Shown one piece after another: positions 1-20,785 of a DNA stretch of 22,711 nucleotides. The DNA lies in the NCBI GenBank assembly GCA_003614675.1, contig ML002217.1:62001-84711 (forward strand), in the 5' to 3' direction. The DNA comes from Dimargaris cristalligena. Its lineage: Eukaryota. The notes beneath the pieces were generated by a model. The model was not told where the DNA came from, made no database searches, and saw nothing but the letters and a program-made list of their open reading frames with translations. Each line of letters begins with the position of its first letter. Positions within the stretch are counted from its first letter, which is position 1. The position numbers and the translations under genes are program-made.

Positions 1-1250
1 GGTCGCGAGGGGGAACATACAATTTATAGTGGCTATACTACCCAACAACGACGTTCACCCTCAGGCCAAATGAGCGACGCGGGAAGGTGGGCAGAGGTCG
101 GGTTGAAAAAAACGGTATAATAGGAGAGGCCAACCGGGTAAGCTACTTACGTTTCAAGCAGCTATAAGCATGCACTGTATACAAAATGGATTAAAAGGTA
201 TTGCGAATAACACAAATAGTGGAAAGAGAGAACAAGGGGGAAAGCGGGGAACGAAGGAGCGGAACATGCAAATATGGGGCTTGGAGCAGGCATTATTTAT
301 CCGTCGATTACAGAAGTGTCTGGAAGGGGGTGATTGGTGAATGCGCATATATTGGTAGATTTCGCGGGAATGTTGGGGGGGTTAAAAAATAATGGATTTG
401 GACTTGAGAGAGAGGCCCCCTTGGTTCAGGGATATAATGTATCGCAGCAATACTGCACACACTGCGCTTGTCCCTGGCTCTCCCGGCAGCTATAACGCCA
501 GTATCACTGTGACCACCCTGCAACCGGTGGGGAGGGGGATAGAAGTACCACCATTGGGGGAGAGGATAATGGCCCCCAGGCTAATTACCCTCACCACATC
601 CGTATTATCTATTTGTCAGTGTTTTGTCATAGATAGACTGTTAAGCATACGTGGGTTAGTTTCTTATCCCCACTAATCCTACTATACTGGTATATTGTTG
701 GAAGAACCCTGCGGAGCCCCTCTCTATAAGTCTATTTTGGTGTGACATTTAATGCCGATAAAATATATGCCCGGCTGACCTAACCCAACTTTTGTCAACC
801 TGGTCCCAGAGCTGTCAAAAAACCACGCATGTGACAAGGGGGAGGGGTTCACTACTGTGGTTGCTTAATTATGATGCTCGGCAACTCATGTGATTACAGA
901 ATTACACCCTTTAATCTAAAGTGCCCCTTAGTTCAGTGGAATTACGGAAATCGGCGTAAAGCGGTCAACCATAAGGTAATTACTTTAATTGGCCAGGCTA
1001 ATTTATAATAGGTTAACTACGCTGAATACGGAGAGCCCCGTCCAAGTAAATTATATGTTAAACCTTATCTCCTTGGTGGGTCAGTATTGGCAGGGTAAAG
1101 ACACGTAGCTTGGGTATTTTTACATTTGCACAGGATTAGAAACCATAAATAGCCGGGTCGGACTTTTACTATGTGTGTATTTCGATCTTAAGGCCAATTG
1201 TGGTCTGTGAAATCACTAAAGTTTAGAAAGATTGGCACTATGGGTGCTTA

Positions 1251-1958
1251 TGTATTGCTGCTTAGTGCAGGATTAGGAGGAAGTTAAATGCTTATCGATT
1301 TCTTACCACACTTCATCAATTCCAAAATTATGCATACTACTCTGAAACGGACGTCGCCATCGGGCCCACTACCTCACGTCAATTAGTATCTCTGAAACCA
1401 TGAGAGGAAACGGCTCCACTAGCGGTGAGATGAGAAGCACCAGTGGAGCATGGTCAATTCCGGAGAACTTGTTGCCGGAAATCACATAGCCATTAACAAA
1501 GCCGTTCATTCTTAGGTTTTGCTTTTTGAGTATTTAAACCCGCCTGTTCTGCTCCTAAGTTCGGGAAGCGACCTAGTTTGCATTATTATTAAATTCTTTA
1601 CTGATGAATTCTTCTAAAAAAAATATTATTTTGAAAACCCCAGTTATCTGAACAATTTATTTAAAGACTATTGAAGAGTGAGAACGAAAAGTAGCCATGG
1701 TCCTCGTATTCATATATTTTGACTGAAGAAAAGCATTTTTTTTTAAATAATAGTTTATTTTCCCGTATTCATTCAAATATGTTCCGCTTCAAGTGTCCAT
1801 ATGCTGGAAGCCCAGAGGCATCACCCTCACCGCCTCCATCCCGCCCTCGCTCGCCGTTAGAGCGGTTGGTCCAGCTGACCTCCTCGTCGCGACCCGGTGC
1901 ACCTCAACCCGGCGGGGCAATACTAAACCCTCCTGGATCCCCGGGCTGCCTCAATACA
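1251..1958 (+). repeat. Left arm of long inverted repeat (pairs with 2989-3738)
   Basis: 1251-~1517 vs revcomp of ~3467-3738 shows about 11 substitutions and 3 small indels (~94%). 1545-1958 still aligns at roughly 65-70%, e.g. ttttgaaaaccccagttatctgaacaatt vs ttttaaaacccgagttatttgaccaatt, and cctggatccccgggctgcctcaataca vs cccggatccccggaccacctcaatgca. Confidence 0.93.
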
Positions 1959-2041
1959 AGTGGTGTTTAAAAGCAGTGAGACCAGGGGCGGTCAAGTAGC
2001 GGGAAGAAAGGGCCCAGGAGAACATAGACGGGATTTCGAGT

Positions 2042-2467
2042 TTAGGCCTTGACAGCGAGTTTGCTGTCGGCCTTGATCTTCTTGTTCTTCAGCTTGGCGA
2101 AGGCGAGCTTCTGGTTCTTGAGCACCTTGGCATTGGTGCGGCTGTTGGTGGCCCGGATGCTGGGGATGTAGCCGAAACCACCGAGGCCTCCCGCACCCCC
2201 GTAACCGCTGGCACTACCCGCGCCGCCGTGGCCCCCGGAATAGCCGCCATCGAAGTCACGGCGCACTAGGTAGCCATAGGAGTGGAAGCGGTCGTCGTGG
2301 CCGTCGAACCAGGCGCGGCGTTCGACGTAGTTATTGTAGTCGTCATCAGCGGGCTCGTAATCACCGACCAGAGGGGAGCTGTCGTCGAAGGTGTCATCCT
2401 GAGCGCGCACCACGGAGAGGGTAAGGGCGATGGCCAGAAGGGCAACGGAGGCAAACTTGAACTGCAT
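2042..2467 (-). CDS. Small secreted protein, 141 aa: signal peptide, acidic segment, two dibasic (RR) sites, Gly-rich tract, Lys-rich C-terminus; probable peptide precursor
   Basis: ATG in AAAATG context; hydrophobic signal MQFKFASVALLAIALTLSVVRA|Q; strong GC3 codon bias; intronless ORF; TATAAAA ~160 bp upstream. Family not recognised. Confidence 0.88.
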   Translation of the reverse strand: MQFKFASVALLAIALTLSVVRAQDDTFDDSSPLVGDYEPADDDYNNYVERRAWFDGHDDRFHSYGYLVRRDFDGGYSGGHGGAGSASGYGGAGGLGGFGYIPSIRATNSRTNAKVLKNQKLAFAKLKNKKIKADSKLAVKA

Positions 2468-2624
2468 TTTGCGGGAGTTGGGGAGGCGGTACGAGATGGC
2501 TAAAGAAAGCAGAGGGAGATGAGAAGGTAGCGATGGCTGTTGACACTGGCTAGTGGTGGAGGTGAAGAGGCTTGGAAAGATGTAGAAGCTGCTGAATAAC
2601 TCTGGAGGGGCGCCAGTAGCCGGG

Positions 2625-2631
2625 TTTTATA
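2625..2631 (-). promoter_or_regulatory. Putative TATA box of the secreted-protein gene
   Basis: TATAAAA on the minus strand ~160 bp upstream of the ATG at 2467, followed by a pyrimidine-rich leader. Confidence 0.55.
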
Positions 2632-2988
2632 GAAAGTGGGAGTCCAGCAGTAGACCTCATTCTTGGTCAATATGGGAGCCTCCTGGGCCTAATCCTCGAC
2701 AACGGTCTGTAAGCGGTGAATTGGTGAGACTTATTTGGGCCCAGAGATATGCGATACCAGCTACTGAATCAAGGATTTATCTTCTATAACTATTTATCAG
2801 GTATAAATCAATCACCCAACTCCTATCTAATGTATAGTCGCTTGCTGGGTGCGAAATACAAGAGTCGGGACTTTAGGTCTAGTGAGCAGCGTGCCTGATA
2901 AATCCAAGTGACTGCTACAGTCCTGTGATATAATAAGACTATCCAGCTGTGATTGGCAGTTCAAGGACCATTAGCAGATTGGGGGAAG

Positions 2989-3738
2989 TGCATTGAGGTG
3001 GTCCGGGGATCCGGGAGATTTCGGCGTGGCCCTGTCGGGTGGAGGCACACCGGACTGCGACGGGGAGGCCGGTCCAAGTAACCACTCCATCAGGGAGTGA
3101 GGGCGGGACCAAGGTGGCGTAGGGAACTGTTCATTAGGCGATACGACGTACGAGATTGTATGGTGGGTGATGCGGCGCATTGGGGACCGTGGAGCGCAGC
3201 GTAATCAAAAGAACACCAGTAAAAATCAATTATAACCAAATAAAAATGCCTTGTTCAAGTCAAAATGTACGGGTTCGAAGACCGTGGCTACTCTATATTT
3301 TCGCCCTTCGACGGTCTTGTTAAAAATAATTGGTCAAATAACTCGGGTTTTAAAAGATGGTTTAATCAGGAATAGTCAGTCGGTCGAGTATTCAAAATTG
3401 ATATAAACAGGGTCGTTACTTGAACATATGGACTTAATTGGCGGGGTTAAATATCCGAATAGCAAGACCTAAGAATGAACGGCTTCGTTAATGGCTATGT
3501 GATTACCGGCAACGAGTTCTCCGGCATTTGACCATGCTCCACCGGCGCTTCTCATCTCACCGTTAGTGGAGCCGTCCCCTCTCATGGTTTCAGAGATACT
3601 AATTGACGTGAGGTAGTGGGCCCGATGGCGACGTCCGTTTCAGAGTAGTATGTATAATTTTGGAATTGATGAAGTGTGGTAAGAAATCGATAAGAATTTA
3701 ACTTCCCCCTCCTAATCCTGCACTAAGCAAGCAATACA
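2989..3738 (-). repeat. Right arm of long inverted repeat (pairs with 1251-1958)
   Basis: Reverse complement aligns to the left arm; high identity over 3440-3738 and diverged identity over 2989-3439. Confidence 0.93.
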
Positions 3739-3762
3739 CTTACAAAGACTATGTCCGATAGT

Positions 3763-3770
3763 GTCACGTG
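3763..3770 (+). promoter_or_regulatory. GTCACGTG E-box (Cbf1/USF-type bHLH site), possible WDR5 promoter element
   Basis: Exact GTCACGTG ~630 bp upstream of the WDR5 ATG; the same 8-mer occurs at 18074-18081. Motif match only. Confidence 0.25.
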
Positions 3771-4094
3771 ATCTATATATTGCCAAAGGGCAGTGGGTTC
3801 TCTACAGGGGGAGCACAATACTGGAAAGGTTGTTTGAATTAAATATTTTTCGAGGAACGGGAGATATGCGTGTGTATAAAGTCATCTCCCCCCCGGTACT
3901 TTAACTATATCCCTAATGTGCCTAGGATAGAAAAAATGATATACCATTTTCGAGGTGGAGAAGGGGCGGGTAAATTAGTCGAAGCTATCGTTATTGATAC
4001 AACAACAGACCTCTAGGTCGTTGAATGGCCTAACCCAGAGGACGGATATAGTTTTGCTCATCCGTGGAAGTCCCTGGACAATTGGCATAACTGA

Positions 4095-5796
<1,702 letters not shown>

Positions 5797-7985: not shown

Positions 7986-9507
7986 TTAGTAGCCGGCCTG
8001 GGCGGGGATTTGAAAGCGAGCAGGAACGGGATTGTGCTGCCAGCGACCAGCATGCTGACGGTCGTGGTGCTGCTGCTGTTGTGGGGGGTGGGTTTGGTGC
8101 GGGCGCTGGTGGTGCAATGGTTGTTGCTGCTGTTTCTGTTGTTTCTGCTTCTGCGGATTGGAATGGGGGCGGTTAGGCAGGGATTGTTGACGGACAACCT
8201 TGGCCAGAGAACCCGACGCAGTGGAAGCGGGCCTAGATTGGTGAACGGGACGAGGGACGTACCGCTGTTGTTGCTGTTGCTGGTGTAACTGGGCCTTTTT
8301 GATTTGTGCGGCCTGAAACTCAGCCAACGAGAGTCGGTGGGGGTGGGACGATGCCATCTGGTGGTTCTGCGGAATATTAGTAATACGGGGAGTAGAAATG
8401 ACGGAGTTGCAGACTGACGAGGCAGGCGACCATTTTTTCTGGGACATTTGCTGGTGGAGCTGTTGTTGTTGTTGCTGCTGCTGCTGTTGCTGGTGGAGTT
8501 GGAAGTGCTGTTGTTGAAGTTGGAGCTGTTGTTGCTGTTGCTGTTGCTGCTGCTGCTGCTGAAGCTGAAGGTGTTGCTGCTGTTGCTGGAGTTGCATTTG
8601 TTGCTGCTGTTGCTGGTGAATTTGCTGGGAATAGCGCGGAGTTTGGGGCGGGGTTACAATCGAAACCCGGCTAGAGCTCCGACTGGGGGAGATGCGGGTA
8701 GGCTGGGTAGTCGGCGGGGTGTCCAGGCAGTACGTCCGGTAGCTCTTGGCCTTTTCCTGGCGGGACATGGGTGGGGAGTCCTGGGGATAATAGACTGACA
8801 TGGCCCGGCGCGGCAGGGTTTGGCTGCGGTCATTCCGGCTGGTCGGGGGAGTGGGCGCGTGGGGCAAACTGGGAGGAGTTAGGGAGTGTCCCGCGTGATA
8901 GCGATTGAAATCAACGGCGCTAACGGGGCGGATGAGGCCGGTTCGAATGGGGGTGCGTGGGTGGAGAGGTGGTTAAGTTATTGGTGGTAGACGCACGCCG
9001 CTGGCGGAAGGAGGGGAGGGGGTGCAGAGGGGGGGCTCCACTAGGACTCGACGCGCGTGACGAAAAGAGGCCCGAAGCACCACCTCCACTGGCATTACTG
9101 ATCAAAGTAGCCTCGGTAGCGGCCGATAGGGAGGAGTGGCGGAGGGACCGGCGGCGATGGGTGTTGGCCGATATGCCTTCGCTGGACGGCCGTTCGCAGG
9201 GTGCTTCAGCGTATGAAATATGATTGGACATACGCCGCGACTGTTTCAGCCGGTCGAAGTACTGCTGCTGCTGGCGGATCAGCTCCAGGTTGCCTTGACC
9301 CGTTGGGGTAGCAGTGGCGGTTGACGACGACGACGATGTGGTGGAAGACATGGCCGACAGGGTCGCGGCTTTGGAAGTGGGTTTCTTCTCCGGGTCGGAA
9401 GCGGACCGGGGCCGGGGGGAGGCGGAGCGACGCTTGGTTAGGATGGACTCCCATTTGGCCCGGCCAGGACCCTTACCCTTCTTGTCGCTGGAGTACAGAT
9501 TACCCAT
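7986..9507 (-). CDS. Low-complexity Ser/Pro/Gln-rich hypothetical protein (~506 aa if joined) with N-terminal MGNLYS myristoylation-like motif; two ORFs joined by a +1 frame break near 8920-8973
   Basis: The ORF from ATG 9507 (MGNLYSSDKKGKG...) stops at 8920. The second frame is open from ~8973 (..PIRTGLIRPVSAVDFNRY..) to TAA at 7986 and holds the polyQ tracts. Both halves share RRxS/RPxS-rich composition. Removing one base from the C5 run (G5 at 8949-8953 on +) fuses them. Confidence 0.7.
8448..8627 (-). repeat. CAG/CAA trinucleotide repeat encoding a polyglutamine tract (45 Q in 60 codons)
   Basis: Direct translation QQIHQQQQQQMQLQQQQQHLQLQ12LQLQQQHFQLHQ11LHQQ. Confidence 0.95.
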
Positions 9508-9689
9508 GTTACGAGGTCCAATGCAGCAAAAGGTCCACGTAGGAATAGGAATGCGGAAGACCGATGGCGGGGGGGGGAGGATAATAAGAGGACTGGAGTG
9601 GGAAAGTAAGGAAGACAAAGAACTACGTTGACGGTGAACGTGGGAGGGGAGGGTATATGCACACCTATATATGCACTTTTATATATGCA

Positions 9690-15921: not shown

Positions 15922-17777
15922 CTAACAGTCGGTGGAGAGCGTCCAGTCGGGCACTTCGCCTTTAAAGTCGTCGCGGGATATCTCCGGACCGGGGCATTTG
16001 ACCGAGCCAATGAGCGAACCTAATACAGGGAACATCAAGTAGAAATATTGGTGTAGTAAGGTATGCAAAAAATCACCGAGTTAAGTGAAATTAATCAAAT
16101 ACCGGCGGGTACATTCCTGGCAGGGCATGTAGGGTTCCGAGGGTAAGTATTCGGAGCTATATATATATATATATGTGTGTGTCTGTGTGTATGTATATAT
16201 ATATATAGTTTGTTTGTTTTTTAAAAAAAAGAAAAGCAACTCCTATATCAGTCGAGTAACGTACCTCCGATCCAGGTCCGGTTCCCCCGGGGAAAGGTCA
16301 GGCCGTTCGTTTTAGCATCCTGGAATTCGAAGCGATCCGTTAAATGGATGAGGGCGGGTTTGTATTTCGGATGAGAAGTGATGAGCGAGCGGAGTTCTAT
16401 ATGCAAACGGTGGGTGAAATTAGGGAGCGACGCCGCACTCCCCGTCAAGAGACAGGTCGACGCCATGAGGTGGCGCAGGTCCAACGGAACCTTGAGAAGT
16501 ACATTGAGCATGGTGGCGGGGATACTTTCGATATCCTGGTCGGGGTCGCCCTGGAACCAGATTTCGGCAGCTCGTTCCCGGATCCAACCGGGGATGCGCA
16601 GATGGCGAATGGTGCGTTGGGGGAGGGCGGAGGGGTCGGAAGATGTAATGGTCGTAGACAGAGGGGAGGTTGGGTCGGGGGCCGGGAGGGGATAATCAAC
16701 ATCGGTAGTGGTGGTCATTTCCTGGTACCAGCGTATCCGTTCTTCGGGAGTGCCCCGGGGTTGACCGACCCGCACCGGACTAGCAAATAAGAGTCGGCAC
16801 TGAATGTCCTCAACGACGCCGGGGGAAAGCCACGAATTAAGCAGATCCGATGATGATGAACTACTGGCACCTGTCGCTCCTGCGTTGGTTGCCGAAGAGC
16901 TATCCGATAACAAGGTGGCGTGCTCTAGTAACAGAGCACGGAGGTGTTTGCCGAGGGCGGCACCCGCGACGGGGGTGGTTCGAATATGGTGAATCAGTGG
17001 GTGAGCGTCGTATACGGGCAGGACCGCTGCTTCTAAATGCCCGCAGTCCACCACCAAACCCGTCGTGGTTCCCGTGCTAAGTAACGCGAGGGTGGGGGCA
17101 GGGAAGTACAGCACCGCGGGCACCTGGAAATGGTTAAATAAAATATCCGCGACCAGCTTTTTGAGCGGTAGGGGGCACAGCGGGGAGTCGCAGATGAGCA
17201 CTTTACGGAGTTTAGCGTCCGTCATGAGGGCCTGCGTAAACATGCGGTGGAGGTGGTAGATTACATGGTCGCGGAGTTGCTGGGGCGGGGCCGCATGCAG
17301 GTCCAGCGAGTACAGGCCCGGCTGGTCACTCTGTAAGTGACCAAATACTTCCGGAGCGACCGGGCCCAGCGTACCGGCGGGGGTGTTGCGATTCGTGAAG
17401 GGTAGAGCCGCGCGGGGCTGCCACCGGAAATGGGCGTCGAGGGGAATGACCGCCCGCGGCTGGGCTTCGCCACTAAACCCGCATTTCAGCGAATGGCTAC
17501 CTAAGTCGAGTACGACGCGGTCCTCGGTACCGTAGACGGAGTAGCGTTTGATGAGGCCAGTCACACCGAGACCGGTGGTGGTGGCGGAGGACGAGAGGCC
17601 GCCGCCAACTCCACTACCGCCCGCTACGCTGCCACTACCACTACTACTACCACTACCACTGCCGGTCCCCAACTGCTGGGCGAAACGAGCCGATAGGTCA
17701 GCGGCAGATGTTGGAGTCCGACCCAGACCCGGTGTGGCGGACAGGCGACTATAGGAAGAGGAGGACGAGGAGGACAT
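15922..17777 (-). CDS. ARP10: Actin-related protein 10 (ACTR10/Arp11, dynactin pointed-end subunit), 536 aa; exons 17777-16265 and 16019-15922
   Basis: Actin-fold motifs with ACTR10 character: VVLDLGSHSLKCGFSGEAQPRAVIP, RKVLICDSPLCP, LFNHFQVPAV, GLVVDCGHLEAAVLPVY, RERAAEIWF. Phase-1 intron 16264-16020 (GTACGT..TTAG) restores WIGGSLIGS and the C-terminal VPDW motif; stop TAG at 15924-15922. Carries a ~75-aa Ser/Gly-rich N-terminal extension. Confidence 0.9.
16158..16207. repeat. Compound (TA)n(TG)n(TA)n microsatellite in the ARP10 intron
   Basis: Read directly from sequence. Confidence 0.9.
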
Positions 17778-18073
17778 GGCGGCCCCAGTCTAACGGAATA
17801 GATAATGGTTGGGGAATGTGATGTAGGACTGTAAAGGTGGTGGAAAAGTAGCGGCTAGTAATTAGGGTGTGAGTGGAATAGCTGAATAAAACAAGGTAAA
17901 CGTAACCGATAGTCTTGGGGCCAGGAAGGTAAATGTTAACCGGGTGGCTAGGCAGAGAGCCTGGGTGGTGGTTTGGCTTGTTTGGTTTAGGTTCGGTTGC
18001 TTTTCTCTCACACCACTTGGTTTTGAGCTTTTACTTCCGCTAACCTTGAGGACTCCGCTGTAATGGGAACTGG

Positions 18074-18463: not shown

Positions 18464-18708
18464 CTCGCATTAATCCGTCGTAGTCCTCATCAGTTTAAGT
18501 CTCCTTCTGGTCTCTCGCATTTATTTCGATCGGACTTACAAATTCTTCCTGGTTAAAAACACAGTGTTTGATGTGATCCAGAATATTTCACTCTCTTTCT
18601 AATTTTCTTGGCTGATTATTGGCTGTTCCCATTTTTTCGGCAGTATCCATCAATCCTTTTTAACCTAGTCTTTCCTTCTTAATTATCGCTATAAGCCAAT
18701 TTAACCGC

Positions 18709-20785
18709 ATGATTTCCGCATGTTCCACTGCCGTATCCAACTCGGCTGACCTGTCGGTCCCGTCCGAGGTCAAATTGCGCCGGGTGTGCGACCATTGCTC
18801 AGCACGGCGCTTTCGGTGCAACGGCAAGAACCCGTGCGGCAGTTGTACCCGCCGCCTCTACAACTGCCACTACAGTCCATTTGCTAAACGTAAACCGCGT
18901 CTAGTGCCACCCACCAAAAACAATGCCCAGGCGGGATTCCACTCCTTCGTATTGGCCAACCCTCCTTCGCCCCCATCGCCCGCCCCAACTAAACCGAAGG
19001 ACTCGGTCCGCATCCAAACCAAGGTAGTTCCAACACCCGCCCCTCTTCCCGTTGCTGCCACTGTAACCGGGGCGGTTGGCGCTTCCTCTGCTGCCATTAC
19101 TACTACTACTACTACTACTACGGCGGCCGCGAACCCATTCCCAACTCCCACCGCCACTCGTTTCCAGGCCAGGCCAGCGTCGCCTTCGGTTTCAGCAACC
19201 CCGGACCCCTTCGTCGGTTCCCTGGTATCCGGGGGGGGCTCCGGACTCGGCCGCCAACACCATGGGTCCCCAACTTCGGGTATTCGCTGAGCGCCTAGAG
19301 ACCACCTTACGCAACCTGTACACCGCGGACTTGCCCGCCTTCTCCGTCTCTTCCCCAGCATTTGACCCGGGCCATCTGACTCCCAGTGAACTGGCCTGCC
19401 TGCATAACAGTATCCCGCCCTCCATTCCCTGCACCGAAGATGTTTTTTACCATCCCGGGCTCATATACCCCTTGGTCCAGCACTTCTTCGACAGCTTCGC
19501 CCGCTTCCGTCCCTATTGGCAGAAGCAGCGGTTTTTCAACCATTTGGCCGCTAACCAAGTCCCGCGATCCTTGCTTAGTTCCATGGTCGCGTACTCCGCC
19601 CAACTCTACCCCTGCCAGGAGAATTACCGCCATTTCATCGAAACGTGTATCGCTGAACATACCCACCGGGCCGAGCAGTTAGTGGCCCAGGAGCTTGAGA
19701 CCGCCAATATGGACACCATCACCTCGGCCCTCCTCCTGTGTCTTATCGCTTGCAATTACTGCGAAGTCGAGAAAATGGATATCTACGGTTCGTTGGCCAT
19801 TCGGCTCTGTTTCTACTTGAACCTGCACAGCGTGGACGCTCCCGCCCCGTCGCCAACCGGGATGTCCGTAGCCGATGCGAAATCGGAGCGACTGTGGCGC
19901 GAGCTCAAACGCCGCACCGCCTGGAGTATCTTTTTCATTTGCTCCATCGCCCGGTTACTAGGCAAAGTCACCTATGGCCTGGATCTGGACCTCGTTAGTA
20001 TTGATACTGCGGATGACAAGGTTCTCATTTCCCTGCTGTTTCTGACCACGGCAGCGGACGGTCCGCCGACCTATCCCCTGGTGATCTGGCCTCTGTTCAA
20101 TAAATCGTTCGGTACCGCGTCCTGCAATTCACTTGTACGCATTGCCAATCGCCTTACTTACCACCGACGTCGCTGCCAGCTCGGGCACCCCGTGAGCATG
20201 ACGCGTATCTGTGAAATCAACCAGGCCCTGAAAATATGGCGAAGTGACCTGCCCGAATATTGCCAACTGGACCTGGTACCCACTCGTACCCGCTACGTGA
20301 AGACCACACCCCTAGTCCTTAACGGCTTGGTCCACTTCCTGCATTACCTATGCTATTTCTACAATAACTCCACCCTTCTACTGGCCCCCGTCCGGGCCAC
20401 CCACCCCATTGAGGTCTATCATTGCGAAGAACTGGCCACCGAGGCCTTCCAGAATATGTGCCAGGAGCTTATCGTGCCCATGGCCGCCGTCCCTATTGCG
20501 CTGCGTCCGCTCAACTGCTTTTTCTACGGCTACTTTGGGTTCCAGGCCTGCCTGCTGAACTCGGCCGACGGTGCGGCGTTCAATGTACCCCGCCAGCTCA
20601 AACTCCTCGACCACGTCTACGTCCTGCTATCCGATTTCTTCCCGCACTCCAAGTTTAGCCAGGCGTTGGCCGAATCGCTGGGAAGCCTCTTGACCAAGTA
20701 TAATTTGCGCTGGGATCCTCCCTCCGCCAACATGGAGGAATTGGACGTGGAGGAGGGGGAGAACTGCGAGGCGGAGAATCCGTAA
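18709..20785 (+). CDS. Zn(II)2Cys6 fungal transcription factor with middle-homology (Fungal_trans-like) region, ~691 aa if joined; +1 frame break between the domains
   Basis: ORF 18709-19290 has C-x2-C-x6-C-x5-C-x2-C-x6-C (CDHCSARRFRCNGKNPCGSCTRRLYNCHY). The overlapping ORF to 20785 has MHR-type motifs (LVQHFF, SLAIRLCFYLNLH, ELKRRTAWSIF, INQALKIWRSDLP). Removing one G from G8 at 19231-19238 fuses them; an intron 19024-19177 or 19024-19195 would as well. Confidence 0.88.

Follow-up and report, generated by a model that had tools for sequence, protein, structure and literature searches.

A gene-carrying block with TGT...ACA ends and flanking CTTA repeats in Dimargaris cristalligena, possibly an old and fixed insertion of a composite DNA element

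We analysed a stretch of 22,711 nucleotides (nt) from Dimargaris cristalligena (contig ML002217.1), which is called the window below and to the whole of which all positions refer. It contains a block of 2488 bp (1251-3738) whose first letters are TGTATTGCTG and whose last letters are AAGCAATACA, giving it TGT...ACA ends. Two arms in inverted orientation, the left one at 1251-1958 and the right one at 2989-3738, enclose a core of 1030 bp (1959-2988) with a gene, its promoter and its 3' region, and the block is flanked on its left (1247-1250) and right (3739-3742) by the direct repeat CTTA, identical at 4/4 bases. Coordinates and sequence of this 2488-bp unit, its ends and the perfect CTTA pair are as an earlier note on this DNA had described them. 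Five public runs, none of them recorded as RNA, contain the stretch, and the locus was compared with contigs from four of them, representing three samples and two studies (runs X1 and X2 from one sample, X4, and X5 from a second study), which were aligned to 301-4800 at a likeness of at least 80%; all that is said below on loose ends, variants and extra copies in the runs holds among the contigs listed, and contigs show presence better than absence. In the run of the second study contigs bridge the left flank, the left arm and the start of the core (301-2090) as well as the end of the core, the right arm and the right flank (2886-4676). An amplification or assembly chimera is ruled out by the divergence of the arms together with the equal layout in this run.

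The inverted similarity of the arms ends sharply, with only 3/10 matching bases beyond the outer ends and 1/10 beyond the inner ends, and the CTTA pair lies exactly where the outer similarity stops, in agreement with the placement proposed before. When 4-mers at equal spacing were compared at 200,000 random placements in the window, 0.43% of them matched by chance. The match of the flanks is not extended, as 1/5 bases agree at 5 bp and 1/6 at 6 bp. The hexamer ACTATG at 1232-1237, 9 nt left of the left CTTA, occurs again at 3748-3753, 5 nt right of the right CTTA, and this mirror-like pair around the insertion site may be chance. The protein encoded in the core has no Pfam match, and the ten stop-to-stop frames of greatest length in the arms (50-91 aa) have none at E<=0.1; as no transposase was found inside the block, just as the earlier note had said, the element would be non-autonomous. 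The layout is thus that of a gene-carrying non-autonomous element with terminal inverted repeats (TIRs), without transposase, with host DNA between the TIRs and with a target-site duplication (TSD) at the outer ends.

Each arm is a unit of its own. The left arm (708 bp, + strand) starts with TGTATTG and ends with CAATACA, forming a 7-bp terminal inverted repeat, and the right arm (750 bp, - strand) reads on the + strand from TGCATTG to CAATACA. The termini of each arm are mutually inverted, at 7/7 positions in the left arm (TGTATTG...CAATACA) and at 6/7 in the right arm (TGTATTG...CAATGCA), so that the terminal consensus across both is TGTATTG...CAATRCA. The window contains CAATACA at just two positions, 1952 and 3732, each time as an arm end; a given 7-mer is expected ~1.4 times. 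As the end of each arm is the reverse complement of its start, any outward-facing pair of ends would be valid for one enzyme. The arms align end to end (left 1-708 with 3738-2989), with 74% identity over 754 columns in a relaxed blastn comparison (E 5e-137) and with 544 identical positions among the 707 aligned ones (77%) and 45 gap columns in a MAFFT alignment. Taken by its termini, each arm is a bounded TG...CA unit that could be either like a long terminal repeat (LTR) or a miniature inverted-repeat transposable element (MITE) with short TIRs.

At 4 bp the flanks of the single arms agree at 1/4 bases for the left and 0/4 for the right arm, against 4/4 for the outer pair, and at 3, 5 and 6 bp the single arms show 0-1 matching bases. 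The locus therefore has the layout of a pair of insertion sequences (IS), in which two inverted units each have their own ends and only the outer ends bear a TSD. Judged by the criteria for a solo LTR, whose TSD is 3-6 bp long according to PMC10045372, each arm has TG...CA and short inverted termini and lacks a TSD of its own. No primer-binding site or polypurine tract adjoining the arms was seen by eye, and no further arm copies are found within the 22.7-kb window. A 77-aa frame of the right arm, searched among longer proteins, retrieved only P0001, the protein model of the locus itself. Left of the block, 1028-1049 shows a 22-nt direct match (86%, E 0.36) to 3060-3081 in the conserved inner right arm, being either the trace of a decayed third unit copy or chance.

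The ~700-750 bp given for the arms in the earlier note stood as regards their lengths, and needs correction as regards their identity, which is very uneven. Kimura two-parameter (K2P) distances, calculated by zone, show the left-arm zone 1251-1500 to be nearly identical to the right arm (95.6%, K2P 0.046), and identity is 64% over 1546-1800 and 66% over 1801-1958 (K2P ~0.5). Two runs shared exactly by the arms, of 41 and 75 nt, lie in the outer zone, as does a conversion tract at ~1296-1386. X5, which represents a second strain, differs from the window by ~0.3-0.5% over the flanks, and left-arm positions 1290-1386 alone contain 11 differing sites. At nine of these sites the left arm of the window equals its right arm, and at the other two it is X5 that equals the right arm. 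The contigs of X1, X2 and X4 break at the two runs that the arms share, through which the X5 contig continues; the evidence for conversion therefore consists of the window assembly and this break pattern, the listed contigs of X1, X2 and X4 being without 1321-1377. The clustering of the X5 variants and the equality of left and right arm at 9/11 of them indicate that the arms were homogenised in the lineage of the window after the strains had split, over a tract of at least about 90 bp. That the outer arms are so alike is then a product of gene conversion and thus no evidence of a recent insertion. Mutation resembling repeat-induced point mutation (RIP) was rejected as the source of the arm divergence, which comprises 99 transitions and 64 transversions in both directions, and also of the X5 differences, where A>G and T>C occur besides C>T.

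The limits of the core follow from the arm alignment and from a paralogous contig that matches from 1960. Its gene (2042-2467, - strand) runs from an ATG at 2467-2465 over 141 codons to a TAA at 2044-2042, with a TATAAAA at 2625-2631 on the same strand, 158 nt upstream of the ATG, and the complete gene claimed before was thus found again. The protein is 100% identical to residues 55-195 of P0001, a public hypothetical protein of D. cristalligena. For this 195-aa model a 5' exon is predicted at 3046-3180 (- strand), inside the right arm, followed by a GT...AG intron to 2500, with 43/45 residues identical. The cargo protein possesses dibasic sites (ERR and VRR), an acidic stretch, a Gly-rich stretch, a Lys-rich tail and a start that resembles a signal peptide, so that the earlier description of an intact fungal gene with a signal-peptide-like N-terminus agrees with our reading by eye. 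On the same reading the protein would be secreted and processed in a Kex2-type manner. Pfam gave no match for it and the ESM Atlas no usable one.

A phmmer search against 1.84 billion representatives yielded seven proteins at E<=0.001, five of which (P0001-P0005) form the cargo family; P0006 and P0007, long repetitive proteins with only ~40-50 matching residues, were left out. P0003 (BJ085DRAFT_38911) is 93% identical and comes from the same species and assembly as P0001, there on another contig (22,107 nt), and P0002 (BJ085DRAFT_36391/H4R33_001579) is a member present in two D. cristalligena assemblies. Tieghemiomyces parasiticus contributes P0004, with P0008 as a near-identical second copy in the same cluster and on another contig, and Dispira parvispora contributes P0005. 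In the alignment of the family the N-terminus is hydrophobic, an RR is invariant and the basic tail is conserved; an acidic and a Gly-rich stretch are also present. By these matches the family is restricted to Dimargaritales, where its recent duplication recurs, as with P0004 and P0008 in Tieghemiomyces. Metagenome scans with the family alignment gave 484 pattern matches with no relative among them, and a scan with an exact 44-nt word of the arm gave 0 matches.

A close paralogue of the core is also visible in the runs. Variant core contigs cover 2112-2255 (12 differences and a 9-nt insertion) and 2432-2573 (10 differences and one gap), a core contig at 2544-2915 has double depth, and in X1, X2 and X4 there is a loose end just before 1960; together these show a close paralogue matching P0003. 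Of the earlier claim of a unique core of ~1 kb, the size (1030 bp) and the uniqueness within the window stood, and uniqueness in the genome did not, given the 93%-identical paralogue. A more distant, P0002-like paralogue covers 2042-2176 on a contig of 7568 nt. An arm-like start of P0003 was considered and rejected, since nothing in the window significantly matches its first 67 residues and the best local score against the arms is 32, compared with a mean of 32.8 in 300 shuffles, 168 of which reach it.

Part of the arm is also found elsewhere in the genome. A G+C-rich block in the inner left arm (1879-1945, + strand), with its right-arm partner at 3003-3040, is covered by extra contigs with excess depth. 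Extra contigs have loose ends at 1804, 1879 and 1918 and at 2993, 2999, 3003 and 3040, and X5 depth over inner parts of the arms is 480-824 compared with 158-163 at the single-copy flanks. Three other genomic copies begin with TGTATTGCC, TGTAGTAACA and TGTCTTGAGG, by eye in register with 2989, and the letters upstream of them are unrelated, matching at 3/16, 3/18 and 6/26 positions. Three TGT starts in register after unrelated letters indicate that the inner arm end is the true end of a dispersed repeat, and on this evidence the inner part of the arm is best described as belonging to a low-copy dispersed repeat. No tRNA lies in the window and Rfam gives there a single chance-level match (mir-1277, 16155-16210, E 0.75), so that the dispersed G+C-rich block is not a known RNA gene.

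Our preferred reading, to which we give a probability of about 0.45 and thus slightly less than even odds, is that a composite non-autonomous DNA element resembling an IS pair inserted long ago and is now fixed at this single locus. Here two inverted units of ~0.7 kb with TGT...ACA ends would bracket the 1.03-kb gene segment, the unit being LTR-like or a MITE with few diverged copies elsewhere in the genome. An integrase-like DDE enzyme would have acted a single time on both outer unit ends together, and its 4-bp staggered cut would have led to the CTTA duplication. The block would then have become stationary, its inner two thirds of the arms drifting apart (K2P ~0.5) and its outer 250 bp being held alike by arm-to-arm gene conversion. 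The CTTA match at 4/4 bases, the single arms without a duplication and the symmetrical unit ends fit a single integration of the whole block, from which we infer that it moved as one piece with the gene travelling along. The class of enzyme would follow from the combination of TG...CA ends with a 4-bp TSD, which in PMC10045372 marks integrase-like DDE enzymes, with 4 bp for Ginger1, 4-5 bp for Ginger2 and 3-6 bp for LTR elements. In the earlier note the block was likewise one non-autonomous insertion of integrase type, and the sharp ends and the 4-bp duplication are still best read so; what we could not keep are its assignment to Ginger and its present mobility. A more specific version, a natural eukaryotic composite transposon made from two inverted LTR-derived units, which moved a whole and working secreted-protein gene, seems improbable to us.

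Several observations weigh against the preferred reading. The 4-bp CTTA match can be chance, and the case had been picked because of it. No second copy of the outer arm is found at a likeness of at least 80% among the contigs listed for 4/4 runs, which cannot prove absence, and the depth at 1251-1800 and 3151-3600 is the same as for the contigs of the locus itself (157.6 and 162.8 in X5). In the X5 bin 3601-3750 there is a small depth excess (222.6), which may be cross-matching of the other arm. Both junctions are bridged in 4/4 runs and no empty site was found in them; the only joint reported connects 1868 to 3045 on opposite strands, not 1250 to 3739. The arm divergence of K2P ~0.5 over 400 bp means either a very old insertion or units that differed from each other before they were joined. 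By eye, another unit copy appears to be linked to core-like letters in the same way (9/16), which could reflect a segmental duplication of arm and gene and not transposition. Finally, homology to the paralogue begins within 1-2 nt of the arm end (1960) and is 90-100%, far above the likeness of the arms to each other, so that the gene may have entered the block or been overwritten later. Present-day mobility of the block is not supported, and the vehicle that the earlier note had seen as now mobilising the gene is not borne out by the filled site in all four runs or by the outer arms, on which no other contig lies at the threshold used. Arms occurring nowhere else and a missing empty site, named there as contrary outcomes, correspond to the data available on the outer arms; the other such outcome, solo dispersed repeats, is found in part, since the inner arm part is dispersed and has its own TGT end.

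Among the other explanations is that of two separate arrivals, in which members of a dispersed TGT...ACA repeat, for example solo LTRs, were inserted independently or copied ectopically and by chance lie in opposite orientation around a resident gene, with CTTA matching by chance. Both arms are complete units bounded by inverted termini of their own, copies of the inner part occur in other places between unrelated flanks, and a likeness of 64-66% over most of the arm length is as expected of two members of a family. The 3' part of the unit is also better conserved among the copies than the 5' part, a pattern which is typical of LTRs. Nevertheless we consider this history unlikely, as the single arms are without flanking duplications and the outer pair agrees at 4/4 bases (0.43% by chance), as two insertions of a low-copy repeat within 1 kb are improbable a priori, and as neither a primer-binding site nor a polypurine tract was seen beside the arms. 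An inversion between two independently inserted units was tried and rejected, since the restored flanks would be CTTA/CTTC (3/4) and CACT/CTTA (1/4).

The close likeness of the core to its paralogue (90-100%, with 93% for the proteins), well above that between the arms, and the start of this homology at 1960, next to the arm end at 1958, would also follow if a foldback palindrome without cargo had inserted at CTTA and the 1.03-kb gene segment had later been copied from the paralogue into its fragile centre by break repair. The mosaic of identical and 7-11% diverged parts, however, fits later conversion between old paralogues equally well, the homology ends on the right at ~2933, followed by indels and away from the arm end, and we know of no empty foldback copy, which makes this course of events rather doubtful. 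We regard as marginally more doubtful still a local inverted duplication of a 0.7-kb stretch by a replication or repair error, with no transposition at all, in which TGT/ACA and CTTA are coincidental and the other copies are flanks of paralogues. The outer arms confined to a single locus in 4/4 runs, an arm-to-arm conversion as in other genomic palindromes and the unit copy that appears joined to core-like letters speak for it; against it, it needs three coincidences, namely the CTTA pair, the 7-bp termini of each arm and the TGT starts of three copies.

The preferred reading, an old composite insertion, can be compared with known systems. Ginger1 has 4-bp TSDs of the sequence CCGG or CCGT/ACGG, TGTNR ends and TIRs of 40-270 bp, and Ginger2/TDD has an RTATAY target preference, TSDs of 4 (or 5) bp, TGTNR ends and TIRs of 50-180 bp, as characterised in PMC2836005, where Bao, Kapitonov and Jurka also propose that the Ginger1 TIRs arose from two opposite LTRs around a gene. 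The block shares with both groups, as described there, the TG...CA ends, the 4-bp TSD and the TIR architecture, and its anatomy matches the proposed origin from a pair of LTRs. Its CTTA agrees with Ginger1 in length and not in sequence, both of its outer ends are TGTAT with a pyrimidine (T) as fifth base in place of the R of TGTNR, and its arms of 708 and 750 bp exceed both Ginger ranges, only the outer ~250 bp being highly alike; nor is an integrase-like transposase known for it. The reconstructed target G-CTTA-C agrees with RTATAY at 4/6 positions, which is weak evidence, as this is a preference and not a rule. Membership in Ginger, as proposed in the earlier note, thus fails, as the sequence of the TSD, the fifth base of the ends and the length of the TIRs all disagree. 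Pfam detects no transposon protein anywhere among the window proteins. An active or recently active non-autonomous Ginger-superfamily element ("Pack-Ginger") spreading an effector gene is very improbable, even if the block has TGT...ACA ends and a 4-bp TSD, Ginger-like rve elements are described as widespread in fungi (PMC5751038) and the related GingerRoot elements as carrying gene fragments (PMC6839031), since it departs from the Ginger1 TSD and from the target preferred by Ginger2, has a fifth base at odds with TGTNR and arms longer than the TIRs of either group, its arms differ by K2P ~0.5 with the outer identity explained by gene conversion, and the runs show a filled site and no extra outer-arm copy.

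Solo LTRs resemble the arms in size (~0.7 kb), in TG...CA ends with short inverted termini and in belonging to a dispersed low-copy family, but here the arms are inverted and not direct, no single arm has a TSD, and no gag-pol, primer-binding site or polypurine tract was seen. Closer in layout are bacterial composite transposons of the Tn5/Tn10 type and eukaryotic macrotransposons formed from two nearby elements. These share with the block inverted unit copies with their own termini around an unrelated gene and a TSD at the outer ends only; in contrast to them, the units are here without transposase and 23% diverged overall, and the element is present at one locus and shows no sign of mobility. 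Pack-TYPE elements (Pack-MULE and Pack-CACTA) are described in PMC8903248 and PMC6379663 as gene-carrying TIR elements, and they and GingerRoot are, like the block, non-autonomous TIR elements with host-derived DNA inside. As far as these sources describe them, they form multi-copy families in plants, with known autonomous partners, other TSD lengths and mostly gene fragments, the GingerRoot TSD having 6 bp (PMC6839031) instead of the 4 bp seen here. The block, in contrast, is one copy with a whole gene and its promoter. Among fungal elements, ToxhAT has an enzyme of the hAT class, unlike the class implied by the ends of the block. It is described in PMC6737239 as a 14-kb TIR transposon carrying ToxA in wheat pathogens that moved between species, and it is thus, like the block, a fungal TIR element with an intact secreted-protein gene, but far larger and with a reported movement, of which the block shows no sign. 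The Helitron-like carrier described for ToxB represents a different mechanism.

The neighbours of the block are ordinary host genes, identified by Pfam as encoding WDR5, an actin-family protein and a Zn2Cys6 factor. The gene for the WDR5-type WD40 propeller (4398-5482, + strand; PF25175, E 4e-134) has at least two exons and lies 660 bp to the right of the block, in divergent orientation to the cargo gene. At this gene X5 has a 16-nt insertion behind 4647, in which an 8-mer is present twice, and behind 4602 an insertion of CC. Further to the right follow an open reading frame of 271 aa that is very rich in glutamine runs (7986-8801, - strand), the actin-family gene (16251-17789, - strand; PF00022, E 2e-33) and the gene for the Zn2Cys6 fungal transcription factor (18664-20782, + strand; PF00172 and PF04082). 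The longer frames 7989-8972 and 8923-9678 gave no Pfam family. At 1020-1022 the window reads CGC where contigs of 4/4 runs have AAA, probably a small error in the assembled record.

As it stands, the block is a single old locus that shows no sign of present mobility. It is at the same time a clean and small example of an inverted-repeat pair partly homogenised by gene conversion between strains, and it illustrates that a high identity at TIR tips does not prove that an insertion is recent. If the block moved in one piece, it would provide a rare example, in a eukaryote, of a whole gene with its promoter carried between inverted TG...CA units by an integrase-type enzyme, and it would bear on the relation of LTR ends to TIR transposons. 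The host, a fungus-parasitic fungus, belongs to an early-diverging lineage for which there are hardly any descriptions of mobile elements. Should the units even be LTR-derived, such a composite would be a living example of the route proposed for the origin of Ginger in PMC2836005, and carriers of this kind might account for the duplications of the cargo family, with its two close copies each in D. cristalligena and Tieghemiomyces.

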